Part shown: piece by piece, positions 22,768 through 62,764 of the stretch | Layout of the letters: the number at the start of each line of letters is the position of its first letter | Numbering within the stretch: position 1 is the stretch's first letter | NCBI GenBank assembly: GCA_038087875.1 | Contig: CM075988.1 | Location: 22,384,001-22,448,000, forward strand | DNA length: 64,000 nucleotides | Source: Malacoraja senta | Taxonomy: Eukaryota | Direction: 5' to 3' | Translations under genes and position numbers: made by a program | The notes under the pieces: model-generated | What the model saw: only the letters and a program-made list of their open reading frames with translations | Databases searched by the model: none | What the model was told of the DNA's origin: nothing

Positions 22768-22818
22768 CTGCGGAGAACAAAACCTTTCTTACTCACTTCT
22801 GCAGCAAGCCATTCAGCC

Positions 22819-22943
22819 CGTTTAAGAAGGAACTGCAGATGCTGGAAAATCGAAGGTAGACAAAAGTGCTGGAGAAACTCAGCGGGTGCAGCAGCATCTA
22901 TGATGCTGCTGCACCCGCTGAGTTTCTCCAGCACTTTTGTCTA
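22819..22943. mobile_element. Fold-back Penelope pLTR insertion
   Basis: Inverted arms around gcagcatc-tat-gatgctgc. 14-bp TSD caagccattcagcc. Confidence 0.85.
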
Positions 22944-23744
22944 CAAGCCATTCAGCCTATCGGGTCCATGCTAGCTCCTGGAGAGGCAATCCCCTCAATG
23001 CCATGTTCTTTCCCTTCCCCCCTGCAACCTGCTCTCATACACATACCCATCCATCCTCCTGTGATTCTTTTGCAACCCATCTACTCAAGAGGCAATTTCA
23101 AGCCGCCAATTAACTTGCCAACATGTGCCTGGGACGCAGGGAGGAAGCCAGAGCACCCGAGGGAAACCCACGTGGTCACGAGGGGAACTTGCATACTCCA
23201 CTCAAACAACACCCAAGGTCTGAATTGAACTTGGGTCCATGATTCGATTAGACAGCGCCAGTAACAACTGTTGCTCCATCTCAACCCAGTGCAACTCGAA
23301 CAAAGCGTTAAGCTGGTTAACACTGGATGGGAATAGACGCAAAAAATATAGTCCATAATCATGAAAGGAATGAGGTCCAGGTTTCTCACAACTGGGCTCA
23401 CATGGATCCCCTCCCACGGTGAAAGCAATGGGCACCAATTTGAAGTCTTGGTCGAAGCCCATTGACTGGAGGGTAGAAAAACAAAGGAGAAGATACCCGT
23501 CGGTGCAAAGGCAAAACACAAAGTGTTGCAACATTGAAAAATTTCTTCATTGCAGAGTGATGTAATTCTGTTTGTTTCTGGGTGTCTTGGCAACAGTCAC
23601 TAATATTGAAGGTTTAAGAAGGAACTGCAGATGCTGGAGAATCGAAGGTAGACAAAAATGCTGGAGAAACTCAGCGGGTGAAGCAGCATCTTCATCAGTC
23701 TTGTACATCAGTCTATGAAAGTATCAAGCATCTTCATAGCTTGT

Positions 23745-24443
23745 ACATCAGTCTATGAAAGTGAGCATGCAGGTACAGCAGGCAGTGAAGAAAGCGAATG
23801 ACATGTTGGCCTTTATAACAAGAGGAATCAAATGTAGGAGCAAGGAGGTCCTTCTGCAGTTGTACAGAGCCCTAGTGAGACCACACCTGGAGTATTGTGT
23901 GCAGTTTTGGTCCCCTAACTTGAGGAAGGACATTCTTGCTATTGAGGGAGTGCAGTAGGTTTACAAGGTTTATTCCCGGGATGACGGGACTGTCATATGC
24001 TGAGAGAATGGAGCAGCTGGGCTTGTACACTCTGGAGTTTAGAAGGATGAGAGGGAATCTCATTGAAACATATAAGATTGTTAAGGGTTTGGACACGCTA
24101 GAGGCAGGAAACATGTTCCCGATGTTGGGGGAGTCCAGAACCAGGGGCCACAGTTTATGAATAAGGAGTAAGCAATTTAGAACGGCGACAAGGAAACACT
24201 TTTTCTCACAGAGAGTGGTGAGTCTGTGGAATTCTCTGCCTCAGAGGGCGGTGAAGGCGGGTTCTCTGGATGCTTTCAAGAGAGAGCTAGATAGGGCTCT
24301 TAAAAATAGAGGAGTCAGGGGATATGGGGAGAAGGCAGGAACGGGGTGCTGATTGGGGATGATCAGCCATGATCACATTGAATGGCGGTGCTGGCTCGAA
24401 GGGCCGAATGGCCTACTCCTGCACCTATTGTCTATTGTCTATT
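23745..24443 (+). mobile_element. CR1/HER1-type LINE 3' fragment inserted into a fold-back pLTR
   Basis: [27 protein letters not shown]. The pLTR halves lie at ~23613-23690 and ~24443-24560. Confidence 0.92.
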
Positions 24444-25178
24444 ATCTATGGAGCGAAGGAAATAGGCAACGTTTCGGGTCGAAACCCGAAACGTTGCCTA
24501 TTTCCTTCGCTCCATAGATGCTGCCTCACCTGCTGAGTTTCACCAGCATTTTTGTCTACCACTGAAATGGAAGGCACATTTTCAGGTGAAATTTATTTTC
24601 TGGCATCAGACTTGACCGAATGACCCCCAGGGTGGAGCAAGACTGACGGATTCATCACGTCATATTTTCAACCACAACAAGCTGCTAACGAGCACTCACT
24701 CCCCACTCACGGTAGAACCAACGTTTACTCATGCTTACGGATCAGACAGTGCTACTTTAAAAGGTCGAACACGCCAAGGCAGATTCCCAGTGACTACACT
24801 CTACGTATACTGCACGTTACTCATGGCAAGCACTAACCCTGCCCATGCATCATCATCACAGCTGTGCTCCAACCAAACCTGGCTTCCAATGTCCTTGTGT
24901 CTTTGCTAACAAAAGCTTCAAGAATAAATGGGTTATCGAGTCATTTGCTGGTTTTCAGGTTGAAATGGCACCTATCAGTCTGAAGAAGGGAAATAGGGAA
25001 AGCAGTTCCTTCTTAAATACCTTCGATTTTTCAGCATCTGCAGTTCCTTCTTAAATCTATTCCCTTCGCTCCATAAATGCTGCTGCACCCGCTGAGTTTC
25101 TCCAGCACTTTTGTCTACCTTCGATTTTCCAGCATCTGCAGTTCCTTCTTAAACACGTCATCTATCAATGTTCACTTA

Positions 25179-25508
25179 AAGCCCTGTCCCACGGTGCGAG
25201 TTCATTCCAAGAGCTCTCCCGAGTTTGCCCTGATTCGAACTCGGAGATTTACGGTAATGGCCACTCGTCGGTACTCAGGGCTCTCGTGGACATTTTTCAA
25301 CATGTTGAAAAATCTTCGCGAGTCTTCCCGTGCTTACCTGCCGTTAGCGAGTCTTCCCGAGTACCTGCCGTTAACGTTACGATCCGCTAAGAGACGTCCC
25401 CGAGCTCCGACGTACCCGCTACGTTCATTCTCCGTGCTTACCACGAGTTTGATTTTTTAAAAACTCGGGAGAGCTCTTGGAATGAACTCGTACCGTGGGA
25501 CAGGGCTT
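25179..25508. mobile_element. ~330-bp Harbinger-like MITE family copy
   Basis: ~47-bp TIR AGCCCTGTCCCACGGTACGAGTTCATTCCAAGAGCTCTCCCGAGTTT. Confidence 0.88.
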
Positions 25509-27559
25509 TGAGAGGTGTATAAAACCATGAGGAGAGGAGATACGAGGGAGTGACCGGGGCGAGACTGGTCCTTGATCATGCTGCTGGCCTTGCCAAGGCA
25601 GCATGAAGTGTAGATGGAGTCAATGGAAGAGAGGTTGGCTTACGTGATAGTCTGGGCCATGGCCACAATTCTCTGCAATTTCTTGCAATCTTGGTGATGT
25701 TTCAGGTCGGAGCCCTTCTAATGGTCTGAAGAAGGGTTCCGACCAGAAACGCCACACATCTTTTTCTCCAGAGATGCTGCCTGAGCCGTGAGTGACTCCA
25801 GCACTTTGTGCCTATCTTCGGCAGAACAGTTTAGTTCATTTTTGGCACAGTGAAAAGCCTATTTGTTGCGTGCTCTCCAGTCACTGAAAAGACTATACAT
25901 GATTCAAATCAAGCTGTCCACAGTGTACAGATACAGGATAAAGGATATAATGTTTAATGCAAGATAAAGTCTGATTATAAATAGTCCGAGGGTCTCCACT
26001 GAGGTAGATGAGAGGTCAGTTCTGCTCTTTAGTTGGAGAGAACTTTGGGAAGAGCCCCAGAAACAGTGAAGCCGCAGTGTCTGAAGAAACAAGAGAGGCG
26101 GCCAGCAGCCAAAACAAACCGCTGCAAAAGTGAAGGAAAACAAACTCCATCTAAGCTCATCCGCCATTTTACTACAGCTGTTCTTAGCCTTAGAGCAGCG
26201 TTTGTGGAGACGACAGCCCTAAGCTTCCTTCTGTAGCAGGCCGAACAATGAGTTTGGCAATCGGCTGTCGAGCATGTTGGAAATGACTCTGATCAAGCAA
26301 ACTCTGGGTGTTGTTTGACAGCCAGGCGGCCTCTGTCTACATTTTACTGCCACCGTTGTGTGGAGCAATAACATTGCCTTAAATGGTCAACAACCAGAGG
26401 GTAACCTGGCTATCGACCAGCTTCAACTTCAGCTTCAACACTGAAGCTGCCTCTCGTTGAAGCTTAAAGTTTGCATCACATTTCCTCTCAGATAAATTCT
26501 CAGTAGAAACATGACTCTTGGCTACGTTTATGCCAAAAATGATCAATAAATAAAAAAACTAGATGTTGAAACCAGTGGGCGGGCATGAGATCACTCCCTG
26601 GCTGACGGTAACCAGTTGAAGTTGGGATTAGTGTTCACTTCATCCCAGAGGAAGTCAGACAACAGCCTCCTCCCTCTGAGCACAAGTGCTCAACTTCTGC
26701 GATTGTTGTCTGGTGATTCGTATCAAGGGCACTTACAGAGTCATACAGGGTGGAAACAGGCCTTTCAGCCCAACTTGCCCACGCTGACCAACATGTCCCA
26801 TCCACACTAGTCTTGCCTGCCTCCATTTGGCCCATATCCAATGCCCTATCCTAATCCTATCCATGTACCTGTCCAAATATTTTTTTAAGAAGGAACTGCA
26901 GATGCTGGAAAATCGAAGGTCGACAAAAGTGCTGGAGAAACTCAGCGGGTGCAGCAGCATCTATGGAGCGAAGGAAATAGGCAACGTTTCGGCCCGAAAC
27001 GTTGCCTATTTCCTTCGCTCCATAGATGCTGCTGCACCCACTGCATAAAATGCTGCTGCACCCGCTGAGTTTCTCCAGCACTTTTGTCTTCCAAATATTT
27101 TTTTATTATTGTGATAGTACTTGCCACAATTACTTCCTTTGGCAGCTTGTTCTAAACACCCAGCAGCTTATGTGTGCAAAACGTTGCCCCTCAGGTTCCT
27201 CCTATGAAATCTTCCCCCCCTCAATTTAAACCTATGTCCTCTGGTTCTTGATTCCCCTACTCTGGGTAAAAGACTGTGCATTCACTCTATCTATTCTTCT
27301 CATGATCTTGTACACCTTTATAAGATCACCCCTCATCCTCCTGCGTGCCAAGGAATAAAGTCCTGGCCTGCTCAGCCTCTCCCTACAGCTCAGGTCCTCA
27401 AGTCCTGGCAACATCCTCACAAAACGTCTCTGCACCCCATCTAGCTTAACAACATCTTTGCTATAACAGGGAGACCAAAACTGAACGCAATGTGGCCTCA
27501 CCAATGTCTTGTACACTTTGTTATGACTGGGCTTGGTGGTGATGGCTTCCCCAGCTGAG

Positions 27560-28048: not shown

Positions 28049-28233
28049 CTCACAAGGTCACAATCCATCATGCTTGAGCCTGGGAGTTCCTGCACGACCT
28101 CTATTAGTTTAGTTTAGAATTACAGCATGAAAACAGGGCCTTGCGGTCCACGCCGACAACCGAACAGCCATTCACACAAGTTCAATGTTATCCCGCTTTA
28201 ATGCAACAACAAAAAACAATGTTCTGAAGTCTA

Positions 28234-28433
28234 GTTTAAGAAAGAACTGCAGATGCTGGAAAAATCGAAGGTCGACAAAAATGCTGGAGGAACTCAGCGG
28301 GTGAGGCAGCATCAATGGCGTGAAGAAATAGGCGACGTTTCAGTCTGAAGAAGGGTCTCGACCCGAAACGTCGCCTATTTCTTCTCTCCATAGATGCTGC
28401 CTCACCCGCTGAGTTCCTCCAGCATTTTTGCCT
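28234..28433. mobile_element. Fold-back Penelope pLTR insertion
   Basis: Inverted pLTR arms. 15-bp TSD atgttctgaagtcta (28219-28233 and 28434-28448). Confidence 0.88.
28345..28372 (+). ncRNA. Minimal type I hammerhead ribozyme motif in a Penelope pLTR (representative copy)
   Basis: CTGAAGA-A-GGGT(CTCG)ACCC-GAAA-CGTC: both conserved core boxes, stem II, a palindromic ACGT in place of stem III, and a GUC triplet. Identical cores at 46128, 63443 (+) and 15133, 46053, 46099 (-). Confidence 0.75.
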
Positions 28434-29567
28434 ATGTTCTGAAGTCTATATAGCTCAGAGCTTATTTGGAGGTTGTAGTGCCCCAAAACTGGGAAGCACA
28501 GTGAACCAAGAGGAGGATAGTTAGAGACTTCAAGGAGCAATAGAGAGGTTGGTAGATTGCTTGATGCAATTTAACACAGAAAATGCAAAGCATTGCATTT
28601 CTGTAGAATGAGCCCAGCTGGGACCAGAGGACGGTTTCCAAAATCTCAAGAAAGTCAAGAATGGTTTAATTGTCCTATGCAGCGACGCCAGGACAGTAAT
28701 ATTCTTACTTGCTGCAGCTTTACAGGCAGATTAAATGAAACAACACAAGAAGTAAATATACAACACATTATAGGGTAAAATAAGTTTGGTGTTAAATGTG
28801 CATCAATGGTTGAAATTGATCAGTCAGGACAGGTTGAGAAAGTGATTAGACAATAGATTAGACAGGTTGAGAAAGTGATTAGACAATGCAGGAGTAGGCC
28901 ATTTGGCCCTTCGAGCCAGCACCGCCATTCAATGTGATCATGGCTGATCATCCCCAATCGTTACCCCGTTCCTGCCTTCTCCCCATATCCCCTGACTCCG
29001 CTATCTTTAAGAGCCCTATCTAGCGCTCTCTTGAAAGCATCCAGAGAACCGACCTCCACTGCCCTCTGAGGCAGAGAATTCCACAGACTCACCACTCTCT
29101 GTTGAAAGAACATACAAGGGGGAAACTCGCTGAGTTTCTCCAGCATTTTTGTCTACCTTCGATTTTCCAGCATCTGCAGTTCCTTCTTGAACATATAAAT
29201 TATTATATTGGAATTGCTAATTGATCAGCACATACTGTGGCAATAGGGTTTGAAATTCCTTGTCTGTCAAAGCAAACCCATGCCCACCAACCAGCACCAG
29301 AAGACTTCACTTCTACCTCCACTGTTAGCAAGTGCTTCTGGCAGGCAGGTTCACAAGCCAGAACTAGGCACTTTGTTTTTGCTACAGAAACATCTGGCTG
29401 TGTTATGTGGGACCTTGTAAAGCCAATTACCAATCTGCTCATGGCAGCAACTCTCTCCTGTTGGGTTCAAACAAAAATTGGCAAGATTAAACTCAATTGT
29501 ATCGCAATCCAAATCCGATCGCTTTTGAACTTGGTTGTGAAACCAAGTCCTGGAGCAGTCAGCCTAA

Positions 29568-29897
29568 TAGCCCTGTCCCACGGTACGATTTCATTCCAAG
29601 AGCTCTCCCGAGTTTTAAAAAAATCAAACTCGTGGTAAACACAGAGAATGAACTTAGCTGGTACGTCGGAGCTCGGGGACGTCTCTTAGCGGCTCGTAAC
29701 GCTAACGGCAGGTACTCGGGAAGACTCGCTAACGGCAGGTAAGCACGGGAAGACTCGTGAAGATTTTTCAACATGATGAAAAATGTCCACGAGAGCCCCG
29801 AGTACTGACGAGTGGCCATTACCGTAAATCTCCGAGTTCGAATCAGGGCAAACTCAGGAGAACTCTTGGAATGAACTCATCCCGTGGGACAGGGCTT
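29568..29897. mobile_element. ~330-bp Harbinger-like MITE family copy
   Basis: Same TIRs, opposite orientation. Confidence 0.88.
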
Positions 29898-30927
29898 GAA
29901 CAGACTGAAACATTCAAAACAAATCAGAAATGTTAACAATTCAGTGAGAAGATCAGGGCCGAGAGTCGAGAGTCAAGACACATTGTCATATGTCCCAAAA
30001 CAGAAGAATGAAATTCTTACTTATAGCAGCACAACAAGTATGTACACCTAGTACTCCGTAAACACCACAATAAACAATAAACAGTTCAGTGTGTGTGTGT
30101 GTGTATGAACAGTAACAGTGCAAAGATGAAAACAATGCCCCCAAGTTTATGTGTAAGAAAGAACTGCAGATGCTGGTTAAAATCAAAGGTAGACACAAAA
30201 TGCTGGAGTAACTCTGCGGGACAGGTAGCATCTCTGGAGAGAAGGAATGGGTGACGTTTCGGGTCGAGACCTTTCGAAGAAGGAATGGGCGACGTTTCGG
30301 GTCGAGACCTTTCGAAGAAGGAATGGGCGACGTTTCTTCGAAGGGTCTCGACCCGAAACCTCGCCCATTCCTTCTCTCCAGAGATGCTGCCTGTCCCGCT
30401 GAGTTACACCAGCATTTTGTGTATACCCCCAAGTCTATGTTGTTCAGAACTGATTTGGAGGTTGTAGTGTTTAATAACCTGATGGTTATTAACCAGTTGT
30501 TTTGGTGAGATCAAAGATTCACCAAAGTGAATCAAACCACCATTGAACCATGAAGGTGCTATAGAGAAGTTCCAGCACGCTCTTCCATTGACTTCAATGG
30601 AATGACACTGGGAAGCAGAATATTGACATTGCAACCAGGGGTGAATTTCTTGGCCTGACTGTTGAGTAGTTATGTGTTAACCACACAGCTAGAGTCTACC
30701 AAGCCAAACTTGGTAAGGATAGCACATTTTGTTATTTAAAGAACATTGATGGATTTTGATGACGTTTCAACAATTCACGTTCACCATTACTGATAATTAA
30801 TTCCAAATTTATTTAATTAACCAAATGTAATTGCCAAACCATGGCAGCAATGGGATCTGTACTCACTTTGCTGAATCTTTAGATCAGGCTTTCAGATAAT
30901 CGACCAATAATAACCATGAAGCTCTCA

Positions 30928-39226: not shown

Positions 39227-39287
39227 ACTTTCTCCTTGACCCTATTTGAGCCTCCATTAGGAATGACCATATCACCAGAACACCCAC

Positions 39288-42027: not shown

Positions 42028-45000
42028 CTGAATAGCAGAGTAGGGAAGGACGATTGATTAACCACTAGTTCATCTCCAGAGAGACAATAGACAATAGACA
42101 ATAGGTGCAGGAGTAGGCCATTCGGCCCTTCGAGCCAGCACCGCCATTCAATGTGATCATGGCTGAGCATCCCCTTGGGTTAGTTTGAACTGGAAGATCA
42201 GGATACGTGATTTAGCTCATCAACTACCACTGAGTTATTGGATCTCCCAGGTTGCTATAGGAAAGTCTAACTTGGAAAGTTCTGATTATAATTTATAGGT
42301 TCGATAGAAAAATTGGTCATTTGTCCTACAGATCTCTGCAATTCAAATCCCAGACTCACCTCAGAGATACCTGGATTTACAAAGTACTTCAAATTCCAGT
42401 GATAGGTATTATTCACAAAGTACTTCAAACACTTCAAGTGCTTAAGAAAGAACTGCAGATACTGGAAAAATCAAAGGTAGATAAAAATGCTGGAGAAACT
42501 CAGCGGGTGAGGCAGCATCGCAGATGCTGCCCCACCGGCTGAGTTTCTCCAGCATTTTTATCCACCTTCAAACTCCAGTGGTAGATATGTGTAGAAAGGA
42601 ACTGCAGATGCTTGTATATACCGAAGATAGCCACAAAGTGCTGGAGTAACTCAGTGGGAGAGGCAGCATCTCTGGAGAGAAAGGATGGGTGACTTTTCGG
42701 GTCGGGACCCTTCTTCAAACTTAGCGTAGAGGGAAAGGAACAGGAGGCCAGAACAAAGCAGGGCCTGCAACAGATAATCAAGGAAGGATGGAGCCCATAA
42801 TGGTCCATTGTTGGCTGGGGAAGAGGTGATGATGAAGGGATACAAGGATGCTGGTGCTAAATGTCTCAAATCAGAGTCTGCTGTCATTTGGCCTCACTCA
42901 AGTTGACCAGACCTCAGGTCCTGGCATTGTGCTAGTTCCATAAACCAGGTCAGTAAATGCAGGATTATTAATTCAATGTTGGGGCATAAATTACAGCCAT
43001 AACAAACCATTTATTGATTTTCTGAAAGGGTAAATTGGTCCAGCACGGAAGCTTGACTGAAATTTGAATCCAGGATTGGATGAATAATTACACTTTATAA
43101 TCTACAGACCTATCTCCAAAATTATGCTATTGGTAATTTATTTTATTTTTTTATTTTTTTCTCTCTATAGCTCAATCTTTCAAAAAATCTATTAAAAATA
43201 AATAAATGGAAGCTGTGTTAATGTGTAATTGATAAACAAATTGTGTTTTGGTTATGATATGTATATGCTTCTAATAAAAAAATATTAAATTTTAAAAAAA
43301 AGAACAAACTATTTGTGATCCATCGAGGCAGGTTAAATTGGAGCCTCTCCCCACTCGCTGGCTGAGCTGCATTCGAAGCACGCAAAAACCTTTTGAACAA
43401 TGTTACTGCTTTCAGGCTGCATCAGGCTCAGACCATGAGACTGGGTGAACAATGATGTCATCACCAGAATTTTGTAGCAGTTCAAATCTATGACAATCTG
43501 TTGATCAAAGGCTTGCTGAGATCAAAGTGGCCAAAGAGTCATAAGTCCAGCATAAAATGCTGCTCCCTTGTTGCTTCTAGAACAAGGAAGATTACGCACT
43601 GTATGAAGGTGCTTCTGGTTAAGCTCTGACTTTCCTGGAAGGGTTTTGTATTACAGACATGGTTTGAGCTTAGTATTCTCAGGTGAGTCCTTGAATCACC
43701 ATCTTATTATTTTGCAAACAGTACATTGCAATGGAACATGCTATGTTTTATTTGAAGCATATTTAATAGCATGACAAAGCCAAAACATAGATGGAAGCTT
43801 GTATAAGTACCACTGAGAAAGCTTGAGCAGCAGATACAGTACGTATGGTTTATCAGAATGAGGATCCTTGGTGGATAGCAGAAGAAATGGCTGTCATAAT
43901 GTGCTATGCAGATAAACGGTTGTACACAGTGCTCTGCAGGTCCATGTATTCGATCATAATGTTTCCAGGATATATTACGCACAGCGTCATTTTAGACAAA
44001 GTGGACGGACATGATATCTTTGACCCACGAAGTCACACAGATCTCAGATTGGAGATAAACCAAAGTTTCAATTGCAACAGCAACCACTGGGTCCATGACG
44101 AAACAAGTCTCGCATTTCAGTGGCACAGATGTGGAGATGTCACCGCTCTCCATCCCCATTACAGTCACAAGCAGTGATGAATGTGTCTCTTCAACCATCA
44201 CACATTGATACCTTGAAGAGAGCCACACAGCCACAATACAAACTTTGATCTACAGTAATTCCTAGATTTATGAACGTTCGATTTATACATTTTTTGCTCT
44301 AACGCCATTGCTTACATCTTTGATTTACAAAGTTGCTTTATCATGCACCGCTCACCGTCCAAAGAATGCCTTGTACTGAAATGGTGTCATGAATTTTGCC
44401 CAGTCTGTAATGATTTATTAATTGTGCTTAGCGAAACGTTCTCTTTAGGAGCATGCCCCCTTTTCTAAGTCAAGTAAGACCTGTATTTAATTTCTGATTA
44501 CAGGCAGAGACACAACAAAATAGTTTGGCAACCCAGACATAAAAGACAGTAGCAATGGGACCAAATTATAACGTGGCTAATCCCCTATGGAGCATTAAAG
44601 GATTTGAAGACTTTGTTACCCATTTTCAATTCCCACTGTCCGTATCAAATTCCCCAATATTGGCTATCAGTCAAACGAGTGAAAAATTAATTCCCAGAAT
44701 TTTCAGATCACCGCACACACACTGACATTAATTTGAAACCAGCTGTCTCTTTAAAACGGATTCTTAATTTGTATCAGTTGAGTAACTGATAAACTAGAAT
44801 TTTCCAGCATTGGTGTTTGAAGGATTAAATATATGTCTCCAGCACATCTTAATATGCATTTTCCACAGGAACTGTAGATAATTAATAACTCGAAGATCAA
44901 CTCTCAATTTCAAGTATGTCTTTGCAAAGAGGGGCTGCACACTGGAGCAGCAGTAGAGTTGCTCTCTCACAGCACCAGAGAACCGGGTTCGATTCTGACA

Positions 45001-45941
45001 ACGGGTGCTGTCTGTACAGAGTTTGCACGTTCTCCCTGTGACCGCATGGGTTGCCTCTGGGTGCTCTCACATTCCAAAGACGTACAGGTTTGTAGGTTCA
45101 TTGGTTTCTGTAAATCGTCCCTGGCCTGTGGGATAGAATTAGTGTACGGGTGATCGCTGGTCGGTGCGGACTCGGTGGGCCAAGGGGCCTATTTCCGCGC
45201 AGTTAGTCTCAAATAACAGGAATCCACTGGTGCAGCATTAAGATTTTACCTAGGATTATTATCCGGTTTACAAACGCCATATTGACAGTTCTGGAGATAA
45301 AATATCTCATGTAGTAACAGACTGAATTCTCCAGGGCTGTGTTATAAAATAAAGTGATGTAACATGACCCTCATGTACTAATAATGAGGGCCTTGCAACA
45401 AGGCGTCAGCTTGTACACAGGGAATATTATTTACAGTCTTCAGCTTCCATGCAACATGAATAATTCTACTCAATCTGTATTGCAAATTGGCACACACATG
45501 TTAGAGAAAAATAATCAGATGATCTGAAATAGCAAAACTACTGTAACTTGATCAGTTTTCTTTTGAGGAGAGTGAGATTGCACATGTGGAGGTTATGTGC
45601 GACTGTTTGCATGTGTATGAGGTGTGTGTGTGGGTGAGAGCAATGGGAAAGGCTGTATCGTGAGAACTGCAACAGAGGCAATAATAATTTAAAAAATAGA
45701 AATGAAACATGCAAACGTGCATTCTCAGGATTGGGATGTGAACGTCGAAAATAGTGGCGAGGGCAAGTCGCGGGTTGCTGCAGTTTCCACGCGAGGTCAG
45801 GATCGAAGCCGGGTCTCTGGTGCTGTGAGTCAATTTCTCAGAATGACGAGACATTGTGCTGGCAGTGACTGGGCGTCACACCCAGAGTGTGTGGCAAATA
45901 TGGTGACATCATTACTCCGCTCTGCCACCGATCTCTCCAAA

Positions 45942-46258
45942 GACAGACACAAAATGCTGGAGTAACTCAGTGGGACAGGCAGCATCTCTGGAGAGAAGGA
46001 ATGGGTGACGTTTCGGGTCGAGACACTTCTTCAGTCTGAAGGAGGAATGGGTGACGTTTCGGGTCGAGACCCTTCTTCAGTCTGAAGGAGGAATGGGTGA
46101 CGTTTCGGGTCGAGACCCTTCTTCAGTCTGAAGAAGGGTCTCGACCCGAAACGTCCCCCATTCCTTCTCTCCAGAGATGCTGCCTGTCCCGCTGAGTTAC
46201 TCCAGCATTTTTGTGTCCATCTTCGGTTTAAACCAGCATCTGCAGTTCCTTCCTGCAC
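45942..46258. mobile_element. Fold-back Penelope pLTR with a 46-bp tandem array of hammerhead cores
   Basis: Three minus-strand cores (46007, 46053, 46099) and one plus-strand core (46128). Confidence 0.88.
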
Positions 46259-46482
46259 AATGATCTCTCCACACGGGTTTCCTGGCTCAGTATCAATGGA
46301 GAAGGCTCCCAAATGCCTGCTAAAAAAACGACCAGGAAATCCTCCCTTGATGAGTAACTAATCATATTTAAAATATTGAATCCCGCCTGTGCTCTCCGAC
46401 AACATTAAGGTTGGCCATTAACTCTGGCCTCAATACTTTCTGAATGTGCCAAATGAGAATGAAGATAGTGACTTGCTAATTT

Positions 46483-47845: not shown

Positions 47846-48423
47846 TCCCGCCTGTGCTCTCCGCCAACATTAAGGTTGGCCATTAACTCTGGCGTCAATA
47901 CTTTCTGAATGTGCCAAATGAGAATGAAGATAGTGACTTGCTAATTTATGACAGCACTGTGAAGAATCAATCTTTCACAATTCCCATAGTTTAGCGATAA
48001 ATATTCTGGCTGAGATGCTAATTTTATGACAGAAACCTCTTTAATTTAAAATATTGCCCCTTAATATATCAATTCACTCTCAGCTCTGTGTTCATCCCTC
48101 AAGATGAACTGAATGTTTTTAAGCCGCAGAAAACAAAAAGAAATAGACAATAGGTGCAGGAGTAGGCCATTCGGCCCTTCGAGCCAGCACCGCCATTCAA
48201 TGTGATCATGGCTGATCATCTGCAATCAGTACCCTGTTGCTGCCTTCTCCCCATATCCCCTGACTCCGCTATCTTCAAAAGCTCTATCTAGCTCTCTCTT
48301 GAAAGTATCCAGATATTTAAAAAATGTGGATTCAGGATATCCGAAATGAAAACAGTTGCTGGAAATGTTCATCAGGTGAAGAAGCAACAGTGGAGAGAGG
48401 AACCCGAAATCATGTTTCAGGTT

Positions 48424-48660
48424 TAAGAAAGAACTGCAGATGCTGGAAAAATCAAAGGTAGACAAAAATGCTGGAGAAACTCAGCGGGTGAGGCAGCATC
48501 TATGTAGATGCTGCCTCACCCGCTAAGTTTCTCCAGCATTTTGTAGGTTAGTGTTAATGTGCGGGGATCGCTGGTCGGCGCGGACCCGGTGGGCCGAAGG
48601 GCCTGTTTCCGCTCTGTATCTCTAAACTAAACTAAGTTTCTCCAGCATTTTTGTCTACCT
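48424..48660. mobile_element. Fold-back Penelope pLTR insertion with a nested HE1 SINE 3' fragment
   Basis: Flanking direct repeat tcatgtttcaggtt. SINE tail at ~48543-48635 with its own ~20-bp duplication. Confidence 0.8.
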
Positions 48661-49042
48661 TCATGTTTCAGGTTAATCGCCTTTCAGCTGAACTTCAGAG
48701 CTGTTTGGACTAGTCCCGGTTAAATTCACGAGCCACAGGTTAATTGGCTTCGAATAAATGTAAAATTGTCCTTAGTGTGTATAGAATAATGTTAGTGTGC
48801 GGGGATTGCTGGCCGGCATGGACTCGGTGGGCCGAAGGGCCTGTTTCGGCGCTGTATCTCTAAACTAATCCAAACCGTTTGAATTATGGACTGAAGAGAT
48901 ACTCACACAAACCACTCTGGTATTTGAACAACTACAGAGTAAACATTAGCAGCTAGAAATGAAACAAGTGCAGGTCTCCAAGTGCAAGAGGAAGTGCCTC
49001 TCCTTGTATTTTCCTAGTTAAAGCTACTCTTAATATATAATG

Positions 49043-49235
49043 TTTAAGAAAGAACTGCAGATGTTGGATAAATCGAAGGTAGACAAAAAAGCTGGAGAAA
49101 CTCAGCGGGTGAGGCAGCATCTACGGAGCGAAGGAAATAGGCGACGTTTCGGGTCGAGACACGAAACGTCGCCTATTCCTTCGCTCCATAGATGCTGCCT
49201 CACTCGCTGAGTTTCCCCAGTTTTTTGTCTACCTA
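49043..49235. mobile_element. Fold-back Penelope pLTR insertion
   Basis: Inversion inside hammerhead stem II. 11-bp TSD aatatataatg. Confidence 0.85.
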
Positions 49236-49611
49236 AATATATAATGAAGTTCTTCAGAGCCTCCATCCAACACTGAAGAGCCCCCTCCCCCACCCTAGTC
49301 ATCCTACAAGTTGCACTGTTCGCATCCTTGCAGTTAGCACATCTGTCCTCGCCAACAATGGGCCATTGTGGACTCCACCCTTCATGAGGTCATCTGTTGC
49401 CGGCCCTGGTCTTCTCTATCTTTCAGTCTGAAGAGTTCTGATCCGAAATGCCATCTATTCCTTTTCTCCAGAGATGCTGCCTGACCTGCTGAGTTGCACC
49501 AACATTTTATGTCTATCTTCCACAGACTGGCTCCGCTTGCGTAGGAAAGAACTACAGATGCTGGTTTAAACCAAAAATAGACGCAAAATTCTGGAGAAAT
49601 TCAACGGGTTA

Positions 49612-52681: not shown

Positions 52682-53011
52682 AAGCCCTGTCCCACTGTAC
52701 GAGTTAATTCCAAGAGTTCTCCCGAGTTTGCCCTGATTCGAGCTCGGAGATTTACGGTAATGGCCACTCGTCGGTACTCGGGGCTCTCGTGGACATTTTT
52801 CAACATGTTGAAAAATCTTCACGAGTCTTCCTGTGCTTACCTGCCGTTAGCGAGTCTTCCCAAGTACTTGCCATTAGTGGTACGAGCCGCTAAGAGACGT
52901 CCCCGAGCTCCGACGTACCCGCTACGTTCATTCTCCGTGCTTACCATGAGTTTGATTTTGTTAAAACTCGGGAGAGCTCTTGGAATGAACTCGTACCGTG
53001 GGACAGGGCTC
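52682..53011. mobile_element. ~330-bp Harbinger-like MITE family copy
   Basis: TIRs and TTA TSD. Confidence 0.9.
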
Positions 53012-53037
53012 TTAGTCTTTGGACTGCAGGTGGGGTT

Positions 53038-53399
53038 GATCTTATAGAGGTGTATAAGTTCATGAGAGGAATCTATAGGGTAAATGCACAGAGTTTTTTT
53101 GCCCAGAGTAGGGTAATCAAGAACCAGAGGACATAGGTTTAAGGCAAAAGATTTAATAGGATCCTGAGGGACAACTTTTTTTTTTACACAAAGGTTGGTA
53201 GATGTATGGAATGAGCTGCCGGAGGAGATAGTTGAGGCAGATCCGATCACAATGTTTAAGAAACATTTCGACAGGTACATGGACAGGATAGGTTTGGAGG
53301 GATATGGAGTAAATGCGGGCAGGTGGGACTAGTGTGGATGGGGCACGTTGTGTGGCGTGGGCAAGTTGGGCTGAAGGCCCTATTCCCGTGCTGTATGAC
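53038..53399 (+). mobile_element. CR1-type LINE 3' fragment whose tail resembles the HE1 SINE tail
   Basis: DLIEVYKFMRGI..SRTRGHRFK remnant. Ends gggctgaaggccctattcccgtgctgtatgac. Confidence 0.8.
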
Positions 53400-56300
53400 A
53401 GACTGCAAATATTTCACAATATGTTTCCTATGTTAAAGCAGTGACTGCCTTTGGGATTTCCCAAGTAGAAAAGTATTTTATATATAGACACATATATGGG
53501 AAGCCTTTCCTCTTTTTAAGTATTAACACTCTCCTTGGGATTCCTGTAAATGTCTTCACCATTCTGAGGATCCAGTGCAAATGTGATCACACTTTGCGAT
53601 TTCCAAGAATTAGCTTCATTCTAGACATCCCCCGCATGTATTGACCGACGACAATGAATCCCTAGAAAATATTAATAGACTCTTTGGGATACTTTGCAGA
53701 TACACACACACTTTGAGGGACCCCATGGTAACATTAACACTCCCAAGGATCCTTTGCAAACATTACCATTCTCCCAGGGATGCTCTGCTCTTGCAAACCC
53801 CGCGATCAAACTCTGAGAGAACACCAAACATTTGCTGGGGAAACCTTGTTCTCATTCTTGAAAGCCAAGAGGAAAACGCCTGAGATAGACACAAGAGGTT
53901 CAAATGACAATAAACGGTATTGTATTGTATTGTATTGTAGATGCTGGAGTAACTCAGCGGCTCAGGCAGCATCTCTGGAGAAAATGGAGGGGACGTTTCG
54001 GGTCAGGACCCTTCTTCTGACTGAAGAAACAGTCTGAAGAAGGTTTTCTGACCCGAAAAAAATCACCTCTCCATTTTCTCCAGAGATACTGCCTGACCCG
54101 CTGAGTTACTCCAGCATCTTGCGTCTATCCTTGATATAAACCAACTACTGCAGTTCATTTCTATTGCAGAAAGATTCCTGATATCATTTGCAAAAAGAAG
54201 CGTATACGACACAGGAGAGCGGCCAGTCAGCCTTTCGAGGTTGCTCTGCTTTTCCAGTGATTAGCTGATCCAATCTTTGACTCAACACTACTCTTGGGGA
54301 TGATCAGCCATGATCACATTGAATGGCGGTGCTGGCTCGAAGGGCCGAATGGCCTACTCCTGCACCTATTGTCTATTGTTTATTGTCTATTGTCTTCCGC
54401 TTTCTCCCCACACCTCTCGAATCCCTTGTATTTAATATGTCTGTTAATTTCCACTTTGAATACGTTCTATGACTCTATATCTACCTGTTCCCTGGGTTAG
54501 AGGGATGACCAAGGATTCACAATCTTTTACGAGAAGAAATGCCTCCTCATTTTTGCCTGAAACTCTGCTCCCGGGATGCATATTCCCTGACTCGGGGGAA
54601 AAAAACTCTCTCTCGAGTCAATCATCTTGCGTTAAGATCAAATCTCATTCTTCTCCATTCCCGTGTGTGTGGGGAAACCTCCTCAGCCTTTATTCATACA
54701 CAACCCATCCAAAGGATCAGCTGAGTGAACCTTCCCTGCTCCACCTTCATTCCTTGCTGTGTATCTCTACATCGAAGATAGGATAACAACCAATTCATCC
54801 ACTATCCCTACTGCCCATAACAATTTAGAATGCAGATCATCAAGTCCTGGTGACTTGTTGACCTTCAGCATCATTAGAACAAGAGAGAAATGTTTAAACG
54901 ACTGCTGGTTTGGAAAGTGCAGGCATTGAATTTCTTCCCAGTCAGAGTACCAAGCAGAGTATAAAGACTTCTGAAGTCTTTATGGGGTGTCGGTGTGGAG
55001 TTTGCATGTTCTCCCCGTGACTGCATGGGTGTACATTCTCCGGTTTCCTGATACATTCCACAGACGTGCCGGTTTGTAGGTTAACTGATCTCTGTAAATC
55101 GCCCCCAGAGTGTAGGATGCAATAGTGGTCTAACATCAAACTAGTGTATGGCTGATCGATGGTCGCCATGGACACGAAGGGCCTGTTTCCACATTATACC
55201 TCTAAACTCTAAATTTAAAACCCATGACAGAGATCCACATTATCTTTAAATACAAAAATGTCCTAAAACTAACTGCGTGCCCGCTTTTCCAGACAGTTGT
55301 GTGAAACGTTTAAAAAAAATGACTGATGTTCTGAGTAACATTGTATTGCACTGTATTAACAATGTTCTGCACAACATTTTATTGTACTGTTTAAAATGAC
55401 TAAGAATTTCATGCCAAAGGCATATTGAATTTACAGAAAGGGATGGGCTCTGTGACCGATGCTAATCCAATTCCTTTCAAAGGAAGCCATGGCTTCATAT
55501 ATTTCCTGTCACTGGATGTTGACAAAAGATCTCACTCTGCCTATTTTCCCCACTCGCACTGTATTATGTAATTCTCATAAAAAACCACCCGACAATGACG
55601 GATGACCTTTGCTAAAGCTTAGGTGAGTTTGAAAGCTGTAGGAGACCGGAACAGAGAGACCTTGTATTAGACAGACAGAACAAAAGATGCTCTATTCATG
55701 TTGCAGTCCGTTCCAGAGCATCTGTTCCTTGCAATGAGCTGGAATTTTAAGAAGCGGATGATATGCGGTGAATTGATTAAAACGTGGTAACCAGAGTTGC
55801 ATCATTAGGGATTTGCCCAGATCAACAGAACCATCTTGAATATTCCTGGAGTGCAAAGGAGAACATCAAGAAATAACTTCATTTGGTTGCACCCATTTGA
55901 AGAATATTTTATCCTTCGAACTGGCCTTACACTGTAATGTTAGCTAACTTTCTGAGGTAAATCGATCTGTCACTGTTGGTCGCTCAACAAAGGAAGAGAT
56001 ATCTGGAAATCTAGTTCAAATATATCAGGCTCTTAAAGATAGCGGAGTCAGGGGATATGGGGGGGAGGCAGGAACGGGGGTAGTGAGTGGGGGATGATCA
56101 GCCATGATCACATTGAATGGCGGTGCTGGCTCGAAGGGTCGAATGGCCAACTCCTGCACCTATTGTCTATTGTCAATGAATTTGTATTGGTTGTTAAGGG
56201 TTGTTGTTGCCCTGTCTTGAGGTGCAGTAATACTATAATAAAATGAGCCTGGGGCCATTGGAGAGGATGGAAGATGAAATTTTTCGAAGTTTATATGAAA

Positions 56301-57773
56301 TGAAAAAGCTGTTACTTAACATATTTCTAATTTTTGAGGCAATGAAATTTTTTATTTAATTAGCACAGCTGGTCATATTGGGCATGTGTTTATGTGCGTG
56401 TGCCTGTGCATGTGTGCGACCCTGTGTGCCCTTGTGTGTTTAAAAAACTGAAAGTAAAAAAAATTACAGATGCTGGAAATATTAAATTGAAACAGAAACC
56501 ATTCAGCAGGTCAAGCAACATATGTGGAAAGAGAAACATAATTAATGTTTCAGGTCTTTTATGTTTTTATGATCTTAAATATAGTTCCATACAGTGGTAT
56601 GAAAGACTTCCCCAGAAGACTGAGGACATTTGTCATGTCTCCAACAACACTTACCAACTTCTACAGATGTGCCGTAAAACCATATTATCGGGATGCATTA
56701 CAGCTTAGTTTCAGTAACTCTGCCGAAGATCGCAAGAAATTGGTGATTTGTGGATGTAGCCCAGACCGTCACATAGATCATCAACCCCCCTACCATCAAC
56801 TCCCCCGACATTTCATACTGCTTCTTGATGATTCCATCAATGTGCTGGGTCCAGGACAGATCTTCAGAGACATGTCCACCCAGGAATATATTTTAGGCAC
56901 CTGGACTACCTACTGAAGTGCACACCACTCTCCTTTGAAGTCCATTGAGATTTTGATGATCTGCCCAGCTGGAGGTAAGGATGTCATTAAGTTGGAAAGG
57001 GAGCAGTACAGATTCACCAGAATATTCAGGAGATACAAGGAACCGCAGATGCTGGGTTATACAAAAAAATGACTCAAAGTGCTGGAGTAAACCGGTAGGT
57101 CAGGCAGCATCTCTGGAGAACATGGATAGGTGACATTTCAGGTCGGGACCCATCTTATTCTGGTCGACCCGAAACATCACCTATCCATTTTCTCCAGAGA
57201 TGCTGCATAACCCACCGTGTTACTCCAGCATTTTGTGTCTTTTTTAATATAAACCGGCATCTGCAGTTCCTTGTGTCCTTTTTTTCCCGCTGGATATTAG
57301 CTGGGTTTACAGGCTTGAGTTAGAGGGAGCGGGCTGGGAGGCTGCAGGTGTAATCTTAGAGGTGAACAAGATCACATTCCTTCTCTCCAGAGATGCTGCC
57401 TGTCCTGCTCAGTTACTCCAGCATTTTGTGTCTACCTTCGATTTAAACCAGCATCTGCAGTTATTTTGTACCCAAGATCATGAGACATGTACCCAAGATC
57501 ATGAGAGAAGCCTCCACGTGGCACATCCCGGGAATGCTGACAACAGAAACTGTACCACAGTGACTGACTGAAGTAGCCAATTCTGCAACCACCGACCGTC
57601 AACCGCCAATGACTGACCGGAAAGACGTGATATGGAAGATGGCCGGACACAAGGAAGAAGAAGATGAGAGACATGGATAAACTGAACCACAGGGAGGAGG
57701 ATGCTAAAGCTAGAGGGCATAGGTTTGAGGTGAAAGGGGAAAAGATTTAAAAGGGACTTCAGGGGCAACTTTT

Positions 57774-57973
57774 NNNNNNNNNNNNNNNNNNNNNNNNNNN
57801 NNNNNNNNNNNNNNNNNNNNNNNNNNNNNNNNNNNNNNNNNNNNNNNNNNNNNNNNNNNNNNNNNNNNNNNNNNNNNNNNNNNNNNNNNNNNNNNNNNNN
57901 NNNNNNNNNNNNNNNNNNNNNNNNNNNNNNNNNNNNNNNNNNNNNNNNNNNNNNNNNNNNNNNNNNNNNNNNN
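57774..57973. other. Assembly gap (200 N)
   Basis: Run of N. The round size suggests a scaffolding placeholder of unknown true length. Confidence 0.99.
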
Positions 57974-59125: not shown

Positions 59126-59421
59126 ATTTTAGTTTAGTTTAGAGATACAGCGCGGAAACAGGCCTTCACCCACCGAGTCCGCACCGACCAGCGATCCCCG
59201 CACATTAACACTATCCTGCACACACTAGGGACAATTTACACATACACCAAGCCAATTTACCTACAAACCTGAATGTCTTTGGAGTGTGGGAGGAAACCGA
59301 AGATCTCGGAGAAAACCCACGCGGTCATGGGGAGAATGTACATACAGTACCTGTGGTCGGGATTGAACCAGTGTCTCCGGCGCTGCAAGGAAGCAACTAC
59401 ACCGCTGCGCCACCATGGCCG
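59126..59421 (-). mobile_element. HE1-type V-SINE
   Basis: Reverse-complement copy. Further copies near 9117, 11250, 32910, 44931, 52170, 54990, 60606 and 62000. Confidence 0.85.
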
Positions 59422-60030
59422 CTCAAGAGCGGCCTCATCAAGGCTCTTTCTGCCTGACTTTACTTCCACTGCCCTTTGTGGACAAGAGTTGTGAAACCTC
59501 AGAGAAAAGAATTCCACCTCATCTCTCTCTCCAATGAGAACCCTTTTAAACAGTTGCTTCTGGTTATCGATACCACACATCCACCCTGTCTAAGACACAT
59601 TGAACAGTACAGCACAAGAACAGGCCCTTCGGCCCACAATCTCTGTGCTGAACACAATGCCATTAATTCTCCACCTGCATATAACCCATATCCCTCCATT
59701 CTCTGCATATCCAAATGCCTTTTAAATGTCTCTGCTTCAATCACCACCCCGGGCAGTGTGTTGCAGGCACTCACACCCTCTGCGTCACAGACGTACCCTG
59801 CACATCTCCTTTAAACTTTGCCTCACCTCACCTAAACCCTCAGGATATAACATGTTTTGACATATCTCATTACACTAAACTCTAACAGATACGAATCTAG
59901 CCCGACTACCTTTTCCTCATGTGTAATCCTCCCATTCCAGGGATTTGTTTAAGAAAGAACTGCAGATGCTGGAAAAATCAAAAGGTAGACAAAAAAAGCT
60001 GGAGAAACTAAGCGGGTGAGGCAGCATCTA

Positions 60031-60173
60031 TCTTCTTCTTCTTCTTTCGTGTGGCGTGCACAGCCTAAAGTTGTAGGACAACTTGTTCTATTTGATCTTC
60101 CGTTTGTGCACGTCGAGTTGATGGCATTAGTCGAAACAGGGCGGACCACGTGAAGGTTGCAATCTTCCACCCC
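60031..60173 (-). mobile_element. Second unclassified (GAA)n-tailed short retroposon, inserted in a pLTR
   Basis: 12-bp TSD aggcagcatcta. Second copy at ~12377-12508 (+). Confidence 0.8.
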
Positions 60174-62764
60174 AGGCAGCATCTATGGAGCGAAGGAATA
60201 GGAAACGCTTCGGGTCGAGACCCTTGGGTCTCGACCCGAAACGTCGCCTATTCCTTCGCTCCATAGATGCTGCCTCACCCGCTGAGTAAGGGTCCTCACC
60301 CGCTGAGTAAGGGTCTCGACCCAAAACATCGCCTATTCCTTCGCTCCCTCACCCGCTGAGTTTCTCCAGCTTTTTTGACCACCAGGGGTTTGTTTAGTAA
60401 GTTGTTTCTGAACATCCTTACTTAAATAAAGAGACCAATATGTATGAAAATACAAAGAACGCAGGTGCTGGAAATCTGAAATACAAACATAAAATGCTGG
60501 AAAAATGTCAGGCAGCAGCTGTGGAAACAGACAGACCGTTCGTCAGAACAAGGGTCCCAGATCTCAAACGTTAAATATTTTCCTTTCCACAGATGCTGCC
60601 TGACCTTTAGTTTAGTTTAGAGAGACAGCGTGGAAACGTGCCCTTTGGCCCACCAGGGATTACCCATACACACCAGTTCTAACCTACACACTGGGGACAT
60701 TTTTTTCAGAGACAATTAATTAACCTACAAACCTGTACATCTTTGGAGTGTGGGAGGAAACCGGAGCACTCGGAGAAAACCCACGCCGTCACGGGGAGAA
60801 TGTACAAAAACACCGTACAGACACCACCCGTAGTCAGGATCGAACCGGGGTCTCTGGTGCGAAAAGGCAGCTACTGGACCGCTGCGCCACTGTGCTGGAA
60901 AAACCTGTGTTTTTCCAGCATTTTCTATTTTTATAAGAAATACTGTATGCAACACTCCAGATCTGAGCTCCCTAATGCTCCTTTTAACTCAGCTATATCT
61001 TCTTTACTTCTGTATTCAATTCTCCTTGCTAAAATCAATAACATTTTAGCTTTCCCAATTGCCTGCTGGACCTGGATCATTTCCTTGCACTTAAAACCAA
61101 GCAGCCACAGACTGAAAGCCGCACATGGCTGAGGTGGACACAGACGTATGCAAGAGATTTGGAAATGGAAAGTAACATATATCGCTGACACAACCGACCC
61201 TGTTTTATAGATCATTTGCAGTTCATTATGAGCACACCCTATTAAACTTAAAAAATTAAACTTTAAAAAATGTCTCCTGATTTTTATAGTTATACTGCAG
61301 CCAATACAACTTTTGAATAAGATCGTAAGATCATAAGTGATAAGAGTAGAATTAGGCCATTTGGCCCCATCAAGTCTACTCCGCCATTCAATTATGGCTG
61401 ATCTCTCTCTCCCATCCTAACCCCATTCTCCTGCCTTCTCCCCATAAACCTCTGCACCCATAAGAATCAAGAGACGTAACCTTAAGGTGATCATAATTTC
61501 AATGCATCAATACACAACTTCTCTCCACTACTAATACTGCATTTTATGTCTGAAGGTCTCCCTGCAAATCGCAGAAAAACTGGCCCATCTACAATTTTCA
61601 CCAGACAAAGAACAAAGGAAGGCAGAGAAATTGGCTGGTATTTCATTTTATGGAATGCAACCTTGATAAGGATGTACAGGTAATTAACCCTTTCAGGTAA
61701 GCAGGCTATTTCATGTTGAAACAAGGAACTGCAGATGCAGGTTTACAAAGATAGACACATAGGGCTGGAGTAACTCAGCGGGTCAGGCAGTATCTCCGGA
61801 GAACATGGATGGGTGACATTTCGGGTCAGGACCATTCTTCAGACTCCTCTGAAGAACATGGATGGTTGACGACTCAAAACTTCACCTCTATGTCCTCCAG
61901 GCTATTGCATTTATTACAAGAAAATGTTCTGATTAGTAGTCATATTAATACAAATAGGAATTTAATCTGGCTACTGAAGCAAGCTGTTGGCCTTGACACT
62001 TTAGACTTTTAGATTTTAGAGATATAGAGCGGAAACAGGCCCTTCGGCCCACTGAGTCCGCGACGACCAGTGATCCCCTTACACTAGCACTACCCTACCC
62101 ACTAGGGACAATTTACAATTTTTACTGAAGCCAATTAACCCACAAACCTGTACATCTTTGGAGAGTGAGACACGGTGAAAACCCACGCAGTCACAGGGAG
62201 AACATACAAACTTTGTACAGACAGCACCCGTAGTCACGATCGAACCCGGGTCTCTGTTGCTGTAAGGCAGCAACTATACTGATGCACCACTGTGCCGCCC
62301 CAAATGTTAACTGTTTCTTTCTCCATTTTCTGATCTTTCTACAAATGTAGTTCATACTGGAACCGCTCAGCTGAATTTCCAGAGTGATACAAGACAACCC
62401 AGAAATCTTATTTCATCCTTAAATAAGGCACAATGTCAAATACATAGCACGGTTCCTACATATGCAACTCCATTTCCAGACCATGTAATCTCCGCAAGGA
62501 AACGAGAGCAAAATCTCAGTTCATTTCAAGAGAGTCAGGCTGTCAGGTCATTGTGACACTGCTGGCAATACTCTACAGACCACATGCTCCATATCTTGGT
62601 ATCTGTTAAGTCTGACACAGTGAACACTATTAATCGTCTTGACCTACAATGCTGCACGACTTTCTCCGTAACCCACGGCCGGCCTCAGCTTCAGGGACAA
62701 GGAGAGAATAATGGTGGAGAGGAATCCATGCAAATTGGGATACAATTTCCACCTTGGTGTGAAG

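Follow-up and report, generated by a model that had tools for sequence, protein, structure and literature searches.

Head-to-head pairs of Penelope-like element ends in a skate genome, and a candidate two-primer origin

How does a retroelement come to be inserted as a mirror image of its own end? The question is raised by a stretch of 64,000 nucleotides from the skate Malacoraja senta (assembly GCA_038087875.1, contig CM075988.1, positions 22,384,001 to 22,448,000 of the forward strand; hereafter the window, with its first letter as position 1), in which copies of the ~135-bp pseudo-long terminal repeat (pLTR) of a Penelope-like element (PLE) lie head to head in short palindromes. Our analysis supports the view that each palindrome is one insertion event, and nearly every scorable pair joins an arm that carries the terminal tail of the element to an arm that lacks it. 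We estimate a probability of about one half that both nicks in the target prime complementary DNA (cDNA), one from each of two start sites on one template or source transcript, and that the two cDNAs are joined at self-complementary spots or bluntly.

One insertion per palindrome

A profile made from the window copies of the pLTR and searched with nhmmer against the 64-kb window gave 73 pLTR pieces (68 at E<1e-3) in 45 clusters, amounting to 5,675 bases or 8.9% of the window. By hand count there are about 44 insertions of the ~135-bp unit; 18 are head-to-head pairs, with a doubtful long pair at 2230-2721 in addition. Adjoining pieces no more than 40 bp apart are head to head in 16 cases and in the other orientations in 3, 2 and 2, and the figure of 16 was reached in 0 of 20,000 strand shuffles. 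Head-to-head pairs occur about once per 3-4 kb; the insertion is 125-340 bp long and usually consists of two arms without an open reading frame (ORF).

An earlier note, made from the letters alone, had described a swarm at 22805-60391 that recurred every 2-3 kb and consisted mostly of inverted pairs of a single ~130-bp unit, the same as the pLTR of ORF-bearing fragments at 15026 and 16981. All 12 pairs that it named are borne out (those at 23613, 48424 and 59948 are split by later insertions), and the recurrent unit, the swarm itself and the enrichment of inverted pairs all stand. Its limits and spacing do not, since the whole window is filled at a density of about one cluster per 1.4 kb, with 26 clusters within that range and 19 outside it. 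Inverted pairs are about half of the events rather than most of them (13/25 in the range and 18 of about 44 in the window, by hand count), and the copies belong to at least three to four subfamilies, with those at 15026 and 16981 in different ones. Exact-pattern scans of metagenome, viral and prokaryote collections gave 0 matches.

Most of the pairs are listed below; no strand is assigned to them, "repeat" means the bounding direct repeat, and positions in the unit are numbered from the first base of the hammerhead core. The last three lie outside the range of the earlier note.

22805..22957: young pair; tailed arm left (22820-22902), tail-less arm right (22902-22944); centre +45/+49; 14-bp repeats at 22805-22818 and 22944-22957; arms identical at 43/43 positions
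23598..24574: older pair; arms split by an insertion resembling a long interspersed element (LINE) at ~23692-24443; centre in hammerhead stem II; decayed repeat (12/15)
25693..25823: old pair; left arm of 27 bp only; no direct repeat; asymmetry unscored
26872..27105: pair in a LINE-like repeat; stem II centre with 7-nt microhomology; tail-less arm further 5′; ~12-bp repeat
28219..28448: pair; perfect 15-bp repeat; tail-less arm with 25 nt more of the 5′ end (the whole hammerhead core); one private base common to both arms
30135..30440: pair; 38-bp unit triplicated at the centre; 13-bp repeat with one mismatch
42439..42573: pair; centre +49/+50 with 2 filler bases; repeat doubtful; one private base common to the arms
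45930..46271: pair; right arm tailed; centre at the 5′ boundary motif; 46-bp unit in three copies; 10-bp repeat
48410..48674: pair; 14-bp repeat; right arm split by a fragment resembling a short interspersed element (SINE); blunt near-symmetric centre +46/+48
49029..49246: pair; 11-bp repeat; stem II centre
53930..54170: old pair; unusually short left arm; weak repeat (10/12)
57034..57275: old pair; both arms tailed; no direct repeat; the sole exception to the asymmetry
59937..60396: pair; 15-bp repeat with one mismatch; blunt centre +7/+9; left arm interrupted by 140 bp of inserted DNA that is itself flanked by a 13-bp repeat
5041..5261: pair with a different pLTR copy as its target (upstream region); 13-bp repeat, one mismatch
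12966..13187: old pair; no significant repeat
21132..21332: pair adjoining a LINE end; repeat 10/11, score 8 (equal to the null maximum)

Direct repeats were scored for 18 pairs (the doubtful 2230 included, 61723 left out) against 306 mismatched flank pairs. A score of at least 9 was found in 9/18 pairs and in 0/306 mismatched flanks, for which the maximum was 8; measured by hand, the repeats are 10-15 bp long, counting 1-4 nt of microhomology with the arms. All four repeats cited in the earlier note were located, and its claim that direct repeats bound many pairs is upheld: 8 of its 12 pairs have strong repeats, that of 23613 is decayed, those of 42442 and 53941 are weak and in the null range, and 57034 has none. 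Among the non-inverted copies 2/17 score at least 9, in a wider search window without a matched null, and this figure is not counted as evidence. The repeats are 61.5% A+T, against 54.5% for the window, indicating a weak target sequence preference.

That both arms arrive together is indicated by the LINE-like repeat interrupted at 26884: its paralogue at 53203-53323 has the target once and neither arm, as expected if one event makes a palindrome. This search for paralogous empty sites was usable for 1/11 events (the paralogue for 16981 is offset by 37 nt and is uninformative).

Sequencing contigs from the same organism confirm the junctions with 0-3 differences overall, and those of run X1 with no differences over 22919-23177 and 24534-25015. 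In run X4 (organism C), the match of a 448-nt contig stops at 22804 after 256 letters, one base before the first repeat copy; an X4 contig of equal depth covers 23017-23102, and 256 + 159 letters leave 33. These contig coordinates fit a precise orthologous empty site for 22805..22957 in organism C. What speaks against a clean empty site is that the X3 and X7 contigs start within the right arm, at 22926; they might carry the insertion or represent flanking sequence aligned by force to a similar arm end. Because 17/40 displayed variant rows group organism B with D and A with C, an insertion truly present in B and D would make the state of C a precise loss rather than an ancestral empty site. Other organisms share the pair at 23613-24560: its left junction is present in all three other runs and its right junction is listed for X4, as its decayed repeat would lead one to expect. 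Organism C also has the right junction of 28234. The overlay comprises about a million repeat contigs per run, and summed depth in it is no copy number.

Several arms have been entered by later insertions. The LINE-like piece at 23691 and the 140-bp insert at 60031 both lie at about +48 of the unit, the SINE-like fragment at 48543 has a ~20-bp duplication, and an element resembling a miniature inverted-repeat transposable element (MITE) lies in an arm at 49610. The pairs at 28219-28480 and 30135-30469, of different subfamilies, occupy nearly the same position, to within 2-3 nt, in two copies of a short host repeat (39 bp on the right side, 87% alike), a possible target hot spot.

Arm ends, centres and the source element

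Tail states were classed by hand in the 15 scorable pairs of the window (25693, 60454, 61723 and 2230 are unscored). Exactly one arm carries the tail, 33-43 nt long, in 14 pairs; both arms carry it at 57034, and no pair lacks it altogether. Independent choice at the two arms would give 50% mixed pairs (P=4.6e-4), and the excess persists when three doubtful pairs are removed (11/12, P=0.003). The short arms end 11-17 nt past a fixed CCAG motif in 11/14 cases (the rest at about 0, 3 and 20-27) and the full arms at 51-55. The earlier note had one arm complete and the other ~30-35 nt short at a fixed, nonrandom point; the end positions agree, the two-tailed 57034 being the departure.

The tail-less end is not confined to palindromes. 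By hand count 8/21 non-inverted copies are tail-less and 13 tailed; the former end at offsets 10-19, where the short arms of the pairs also end, and include the ORF-bearing copy at 16981. The element therefore makes the short end by itself. With tail-less ends so frequent, the lack of any pair with two of them (0/15) is improbable by chance (P about 0.0005-0.002). At 42569-42588 and 49520-49543 a tail-less end stands tail to tail with a tailed end of another subfamily, about 20 bp away; similar joints are listed for contigs of each of the four runs, and could reflect either coincidence at such a density or targeting beside existing ends.

The inversion points fall at three self-complementary spots: -5 to +1, stem II of the hammerhead (+7 to +21) and +45 to +50. 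Self-complementarity had been noted earlier, with stem II as the frequent site; stem II holds 7/18 centres and the two other spots hold most of the others. Microhomology of at least 4 nt occurs at 4/10 clean centres, against ~2% by chance (P=4e-5; 1e-3 if that of 23612 is taken as 3). No two of the 18 pairs compared are alike in both subfamily and centre, so the mirror half is made anew at each landing. The greater 5′ reach belongs to the tailed arm in 7/14 pairs and to the tail-less arm in 5/14 (26884, 28234, 5054, 12966 and the last junction of 30150), with 2/14 tied; at 28234, inside a perfect 15-bp repeat, 25 nt of the tail-less arm are missing from the tailed arm. A private base is common to both arms in 6/15 pairs, as against 2/210 cross pairs, which indicates one template or later conversion between arms. 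Tandem duplications at four centres show that centres do rearrange, and later deletion could flip their polarity.

Two longer copies point to the source of the pLTRs, and one complete unit exemplifies the hammerhead:

16968..17637, minus strand: 5′-truncated Neptune-type copy, with the end of a Zn-linker and GIY-YIG ORF (17170-17628), a spacer and a tail-less pLTR (16981-17083)
15026..15560, minus strand: 5′-truncated copy with the last 69 codons of the endonuclease region, a spacer and a tailed pLTR of a second subfamily
15354-15560: second, shorter ORF fragment, within the preceding copy
17925..17952, plus strand: example of a minimal type I hammerhead motif with core, 4-bp stem II, palindromic helix III and 2-bp helix I

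The pLTRs downstream of the two ORF fragments thus represent both kinds of end, and the longer copy is flanked by a 9-bp direct repeat. For the fragment at 17170-17628 (153 residues, minus strand), the best relatives are proteins of Leucoraja and Rhinoraja at 75-77% identity, followed by those of other rays and of sharks. It scores just below the curated cut-off for Pfam GIY-YIG (22.0 vs 22.6, E=2e-4) and carries a CX4CX2C linker, and its two Cys between GIY and YIG and two downstream His are aligned with homologues that bear a reverse transcriptase (RT); the fragment aligns to the C-terminus of proteins with a PLE RT. Two of the homologues (P0004 and P0005) show the YIDD region and a third (P0015) combines RT and GIY-YIG at 48-50% identity; the window copies are 5′-truncated and RT-less, and a full-length element with both domains was not found within the window. 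A CX2-5CxxC Zn-finger linker marks Neptune and is absent in Penelope and Poseidon (PMC8557442; this and the other sources are cited for the parts of them available). These motifs support a putative endonuclease-bearing PLE of Neptune type as the source, as the earlier note had proposed.

The hammerhead core is conserved in 17 copies and stem II is 92.6% paired; helix I has only 2 bp, covariation in the stems is not above that of shuffles, and an Rfam scan of the window matched none of the hammerhead families, giving only sub-threshold hairpin matches. We regard it as a minimal motif with predicted cleavage. Cleavage as the cause of the ends was considered and rejected, as no centre lies at the predicted cut (+28/+29); two non-inverted copies begin 2-3 nt past it. 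Single units fold no better than shuffles (three copies; z -0.8, -1.6 and +0.1). In 2/3 folded copies (unit 17918-18053) +48-55 is predicted to pair with the tail in a helix of 8-9 bp, with the short end in the loop region.

Why the insertions are so short is suggested by their 5′ starts, for which non-inverted copies are informative. Two are needed here:

17890..18052, plus strand: full unit running from 5′ boundary through tail, with a 27-bp tail piece directly oriented in front
24969..25167, plus strand: non-inverted copy preceded by reiterated tail pieces (template jumps); repeat 8/9, within the null; left junction present in a contig of run X1

Among 15 non-inverted copies without upstream element DNA, 7 have their first base in a single stretch of 8 nt immediately ahead of the hammerhead core (P about 8e-5, the stretch having been chosen after looking and three old copies excluded). 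The same boundary motif opens the shared sequence in the contigs of each of the four runs, and this sequence decays soon past the short end, at loose ends. All 8 copies examined that have upstream element DNA show a pyrimidine tract ending in AG at the boundary, resembling a splice acceptor; the motif presumably also fits the vertebrate initiator consensus. In Drosophila virilis an intron ends at the 5′ side of helix I (PMC4209133). Run-off cDNAs of 100-135 nt would result whether the RNA begins at this site or synthesis is blocked there. The tail piece before the whole unit at 17890 has the look of run-off followed by a fresh start of the enzyme at a tail end; tail-to-start joints are listed in 7-30 contigs per run in all four runs.

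How the two arms may be primed

The two-primer reading to which we gave a probability of about one half would run as follows. The GIY-YIG nuclease would nick both target strands 10-15 bp apart, the stagger being that of the direct repeats. Each freed 3′ end would prime on pLTR RNA, one at the tail end and the other about 35 nt upstream, so that one tailed and one tail-less end face outwards, as the end positions indicate; that both ends prime is suggested by analogy with the PLE of Anolis. The cDNAs would be short where synthesis stops at or before the boundary 5′ of the hammerhead, whether this is the RNA 5′ end or a splice-acceptor-like block, as the clustered starts suggest. Having the same sequence, they could pair only at self-complementary spots, and would be joined there or bluntly and filled in to give a palindrome with the junctions observed. 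Loss of one cDNA would leave a non-inverted copy with either end. One end of each kind together with shared private bases suggests one RNA, or one source transcript, for both primers, and two-end priming would account at once for these two observations, for either polarity of the centre and for single copies with either end.

Several points weigh against two primers. The centres at 22820, 42439, 48421 and 59946 lie within 1-4 nt of symmetry, with 0-1 nt of microhomology; such near-symmetric blunt centres need shared pause sites or later trimming, and are more simply seen as a cDNA folding back than as two independent stops. The five pairs with a further-reaching tail-less arm include two that are old and diverged and one whose centre is rearranged; the others could stem from later asymmetric deletion at the centre. 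Shared private bases follow equally from snap-back or from later conversion between arms. The supporting biochemistry comes from an element of the Poseidon clade, not Neptune, and the sample is 15 hand-classed pairs from one window.

A more specific version, which we offer tentatively, is a nested form of twin priming in which a protein dimer holds one RNA at two starts about 35 nt apart and presents one to each nick of the 10-15-bp stagger. If so, the tail would be a footprint of the dimer geometry, and the ~135-bp stumps would be run-off products near the RNA 5′ boundary, not a SINE.

The mechanism put forward in the earlier note was cDNA snap-back, in line with a self-priming idea of Arkhipova et al. 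(2013): a tail-primed cDNA folds back and copies itself, is stopped or cut about 35 nt before its start, and its end is joined to the target. We consider this possible and still doubtful. Most young pairs have near-symmetric centres with loops of 2-4 nt, the tailed arm is further in at half of the scored centres, and subfamily and private bases are common to the arms; the discussion in PMC3846280 reads junction palindromes as self-priming, but on an antisense template, and PMC8557442 attributes the tail to endonuclease resolution of an intermediate. A fold-back started at the tail, however, gives only centres at which the tailed arm is further in, whereas the opposite holds in 5/14 pairs, with 26884 and 28234 as exact instances. 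Non-inverted copies, too, can be closed by tail-less ends (8/21), and cDNAs begun at the tail-less site should fold back into tail-free pairs, of which 0/15 were seen. Snap-back is thus weakened, with the four near-symmetric centres in its favor; the 15 pairs lean against its plain form but leave the mechanism unsettled.

Priming by both target ends on two separate RNA molecules, or on transcripts of different loci, with independent choice of start, is improbable. It fits the finding that either arm may supply the centre, as well as the two-tailed 57034, but predicts about 50% mixed pairs where 14/15 are observed. Arms of different subfamilies would be expected at times and none are evident in the 15 pairs, and the shared private bases would need later conversion.

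Slightly harder to sustain is the idea that the palindrome is itself a nonautonomous element (SINE, MITE or retrozyme) propagated whole from master copies. The high copy number, the commonness of a complete unit with fixed bounds (the 7/15 clustered starts) and the joins of tail to 5′ boundary at 17890 and in contigs of four runs, as a tandem or circular template gives, are in its favor. Palindromes that matched in subfamily and centre would be expected and none do; the direct repeats vary in length, the window has no tandem array of whole units, and neither a centre nor a 5′ end falls at the predicted cut. The description of the pairs as a SINE-like product in this sense is therefore not supported: the palindromes do not copy themselves, and no host function is implied. 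A short noncoding master RNA may exist for the single unit.

An assembly artefact, or two successive insertions, is scarcely credible: contigs break inside palindromes and none spans a whole pair, but one pair of direct repeats bounds both arms, contigs of the same organism agree over the junctions, other organisms share junctions, the arms have diverged and carry later nested inserts, and a paralogous empty site has neither arm.

The rest of the window, known relatives and significance

Other features of the window, found by self-comparison and profile searches, are as follows:

25174-25512, 29562-29900, 34926-35212, 35611-35950, 49610-49932 and 52673-53027: members of a MITE-like family of ~340 bp with terminal inverted repeats of ~45-57 bp (self-BLAST)
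39045-39395 and 41563-42057, minus strand: exons of a subtilase resembling proprotein convertases (Pfam Peptidase_S8, E=2e-11 for the second)
46556-47638, minus strand: open frame of 360 codons without a Pfam match

The subtilase exons suggest that much of the region is intronic, and the 360-codon frame resembles what we take to be the C-terminal part of an L1-type ORF2. Two further inverted structures are unrelated to the pLTR: a 290-bp palindrome at 39442-39731 (arms 87% identical), whose ends resemble the MITE-like family and which has a related piece at ~18990-19435, and a 300-bp head-to-head pair of LINE-like 3′ pieces at 14158-14456. A ~300-bp SINE-like repeat recurs about 20 times across the window, and LINE-like 3′ fragments about 14 times; there are also a CA-rich tandem region (~11950-12700) and a 200-base assembly gap (57774-57973). 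A weak Rfam match to a CPEB3/HDV-like ribozyme lies at 3220-3325 (24 bits vs a cut-off of 35, E=0.046), with a similar stretch at ~57500-57730.

The layout of inverted pLTR, one-sided tail, target site duplication (TSD) and palindromic junction is already known for PLEs, and the pairs described here are an extreme short form of it. Endonuclease-bearing PLEs (Pen2 and Pen2a of Adineta vaga, PMC3846280; PMC8557442; Penelope of Drosophila virilis, PMC2377424) have head-to-head pLTRs with a one-sided tail of 30-40 bp, as found here; parts of this layout are likewise described in PMC8969392. The inverted junction is palindromic in both, and the TSDs of the published insertions are 8-10 bp, compared with 10-15 bp here. 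The cases reported in these sources are few and mostly ORF-bearing, whereas the insertions in the window are usually two pLTR arms only (125-340 bp).

The closest biochemical parallel is PAc, a Poseidon element of Anolis carolinensis, whose purified protein, a predicted dimer, cleaves and extends both target strands and begins reverse transcription at two internal sites, one at either limit of the tail (PMC11167929). The cited parts of that study do not treat inverted products. PAc belongs to the Poseidon clade, and the ORF fragment in the window has a Neptune-type Zn linker. Its hammerhead is dispensable for insertion in vitro (PMC11167929); a hammerhead motif is also present in the pLTR here, and has the core, the unpaired base before stem II, the palindromic helix III and the short helix I of the minimal hammerheads of metazoan PLEs (PMC4209133). 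In Schistosoma mansoni, pairs of hammerheads on opposite strands, 100-700 bp apart, are mentioned, without analysis of TSDs or ends in the part of PMC4209133 available, which includes no cartilaginous fish. The non-LTR retrozymes (10.64898/2026.07.22.740005) are PLE-derived, hammerhead-bearing and noncoding, and occur in one chondrichthyan; they are tandem direct repeats of whole units, each with a complete hammerhead, in contrast to the inverted pairs and single copies of the window, where none of the 73 pieces forms a tandem of whole units and only tail pieces or internal units of 38-46 bp are repeated.

Twin priming is familiar from the L1 family. There the two parts come from adjoining, nonoverlapping portions of the RNA, with the poly(A) tail forming one end; here, unlike in L1, both arms copy the same stretch from two fixed starts. 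The resemblance lies in the priming of cDNA by both target ends, with an inversion inside one TSD pair (mentioned in 10.1101/2024.12.14.628481), as is proposed here. We found no study that deals with TSD-flanked pLTR palindromes of this short kind from cartilaginous fish, or with PLE twin priming, in a search that left subscription papers largely and Repbase/Dfam entirely uncovered.

Later steps of PLE integration are called unvalidated in PMC11167929, and PMC3846280 asks for experiments that separate models of self-priming. Copies reduced to their ends, at about one pair per 3-4 kb, allow such models to be told apart by counting centres, tails and templates, so that the usefulness of the pairs as a readable record of the integration mechanism, claimed in the earlier note, is upheld. 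For repeat annotation, the pairs look like MITEs or microRNA hairpins, as the sub-threshold Rfam hairpin matches illustrate, and they are usable as presence/absence markers among skates. If one RNA is indeed held at two starts by a dimer, skate genomes would constitute a very large natural mutagenesis record of the integration step.

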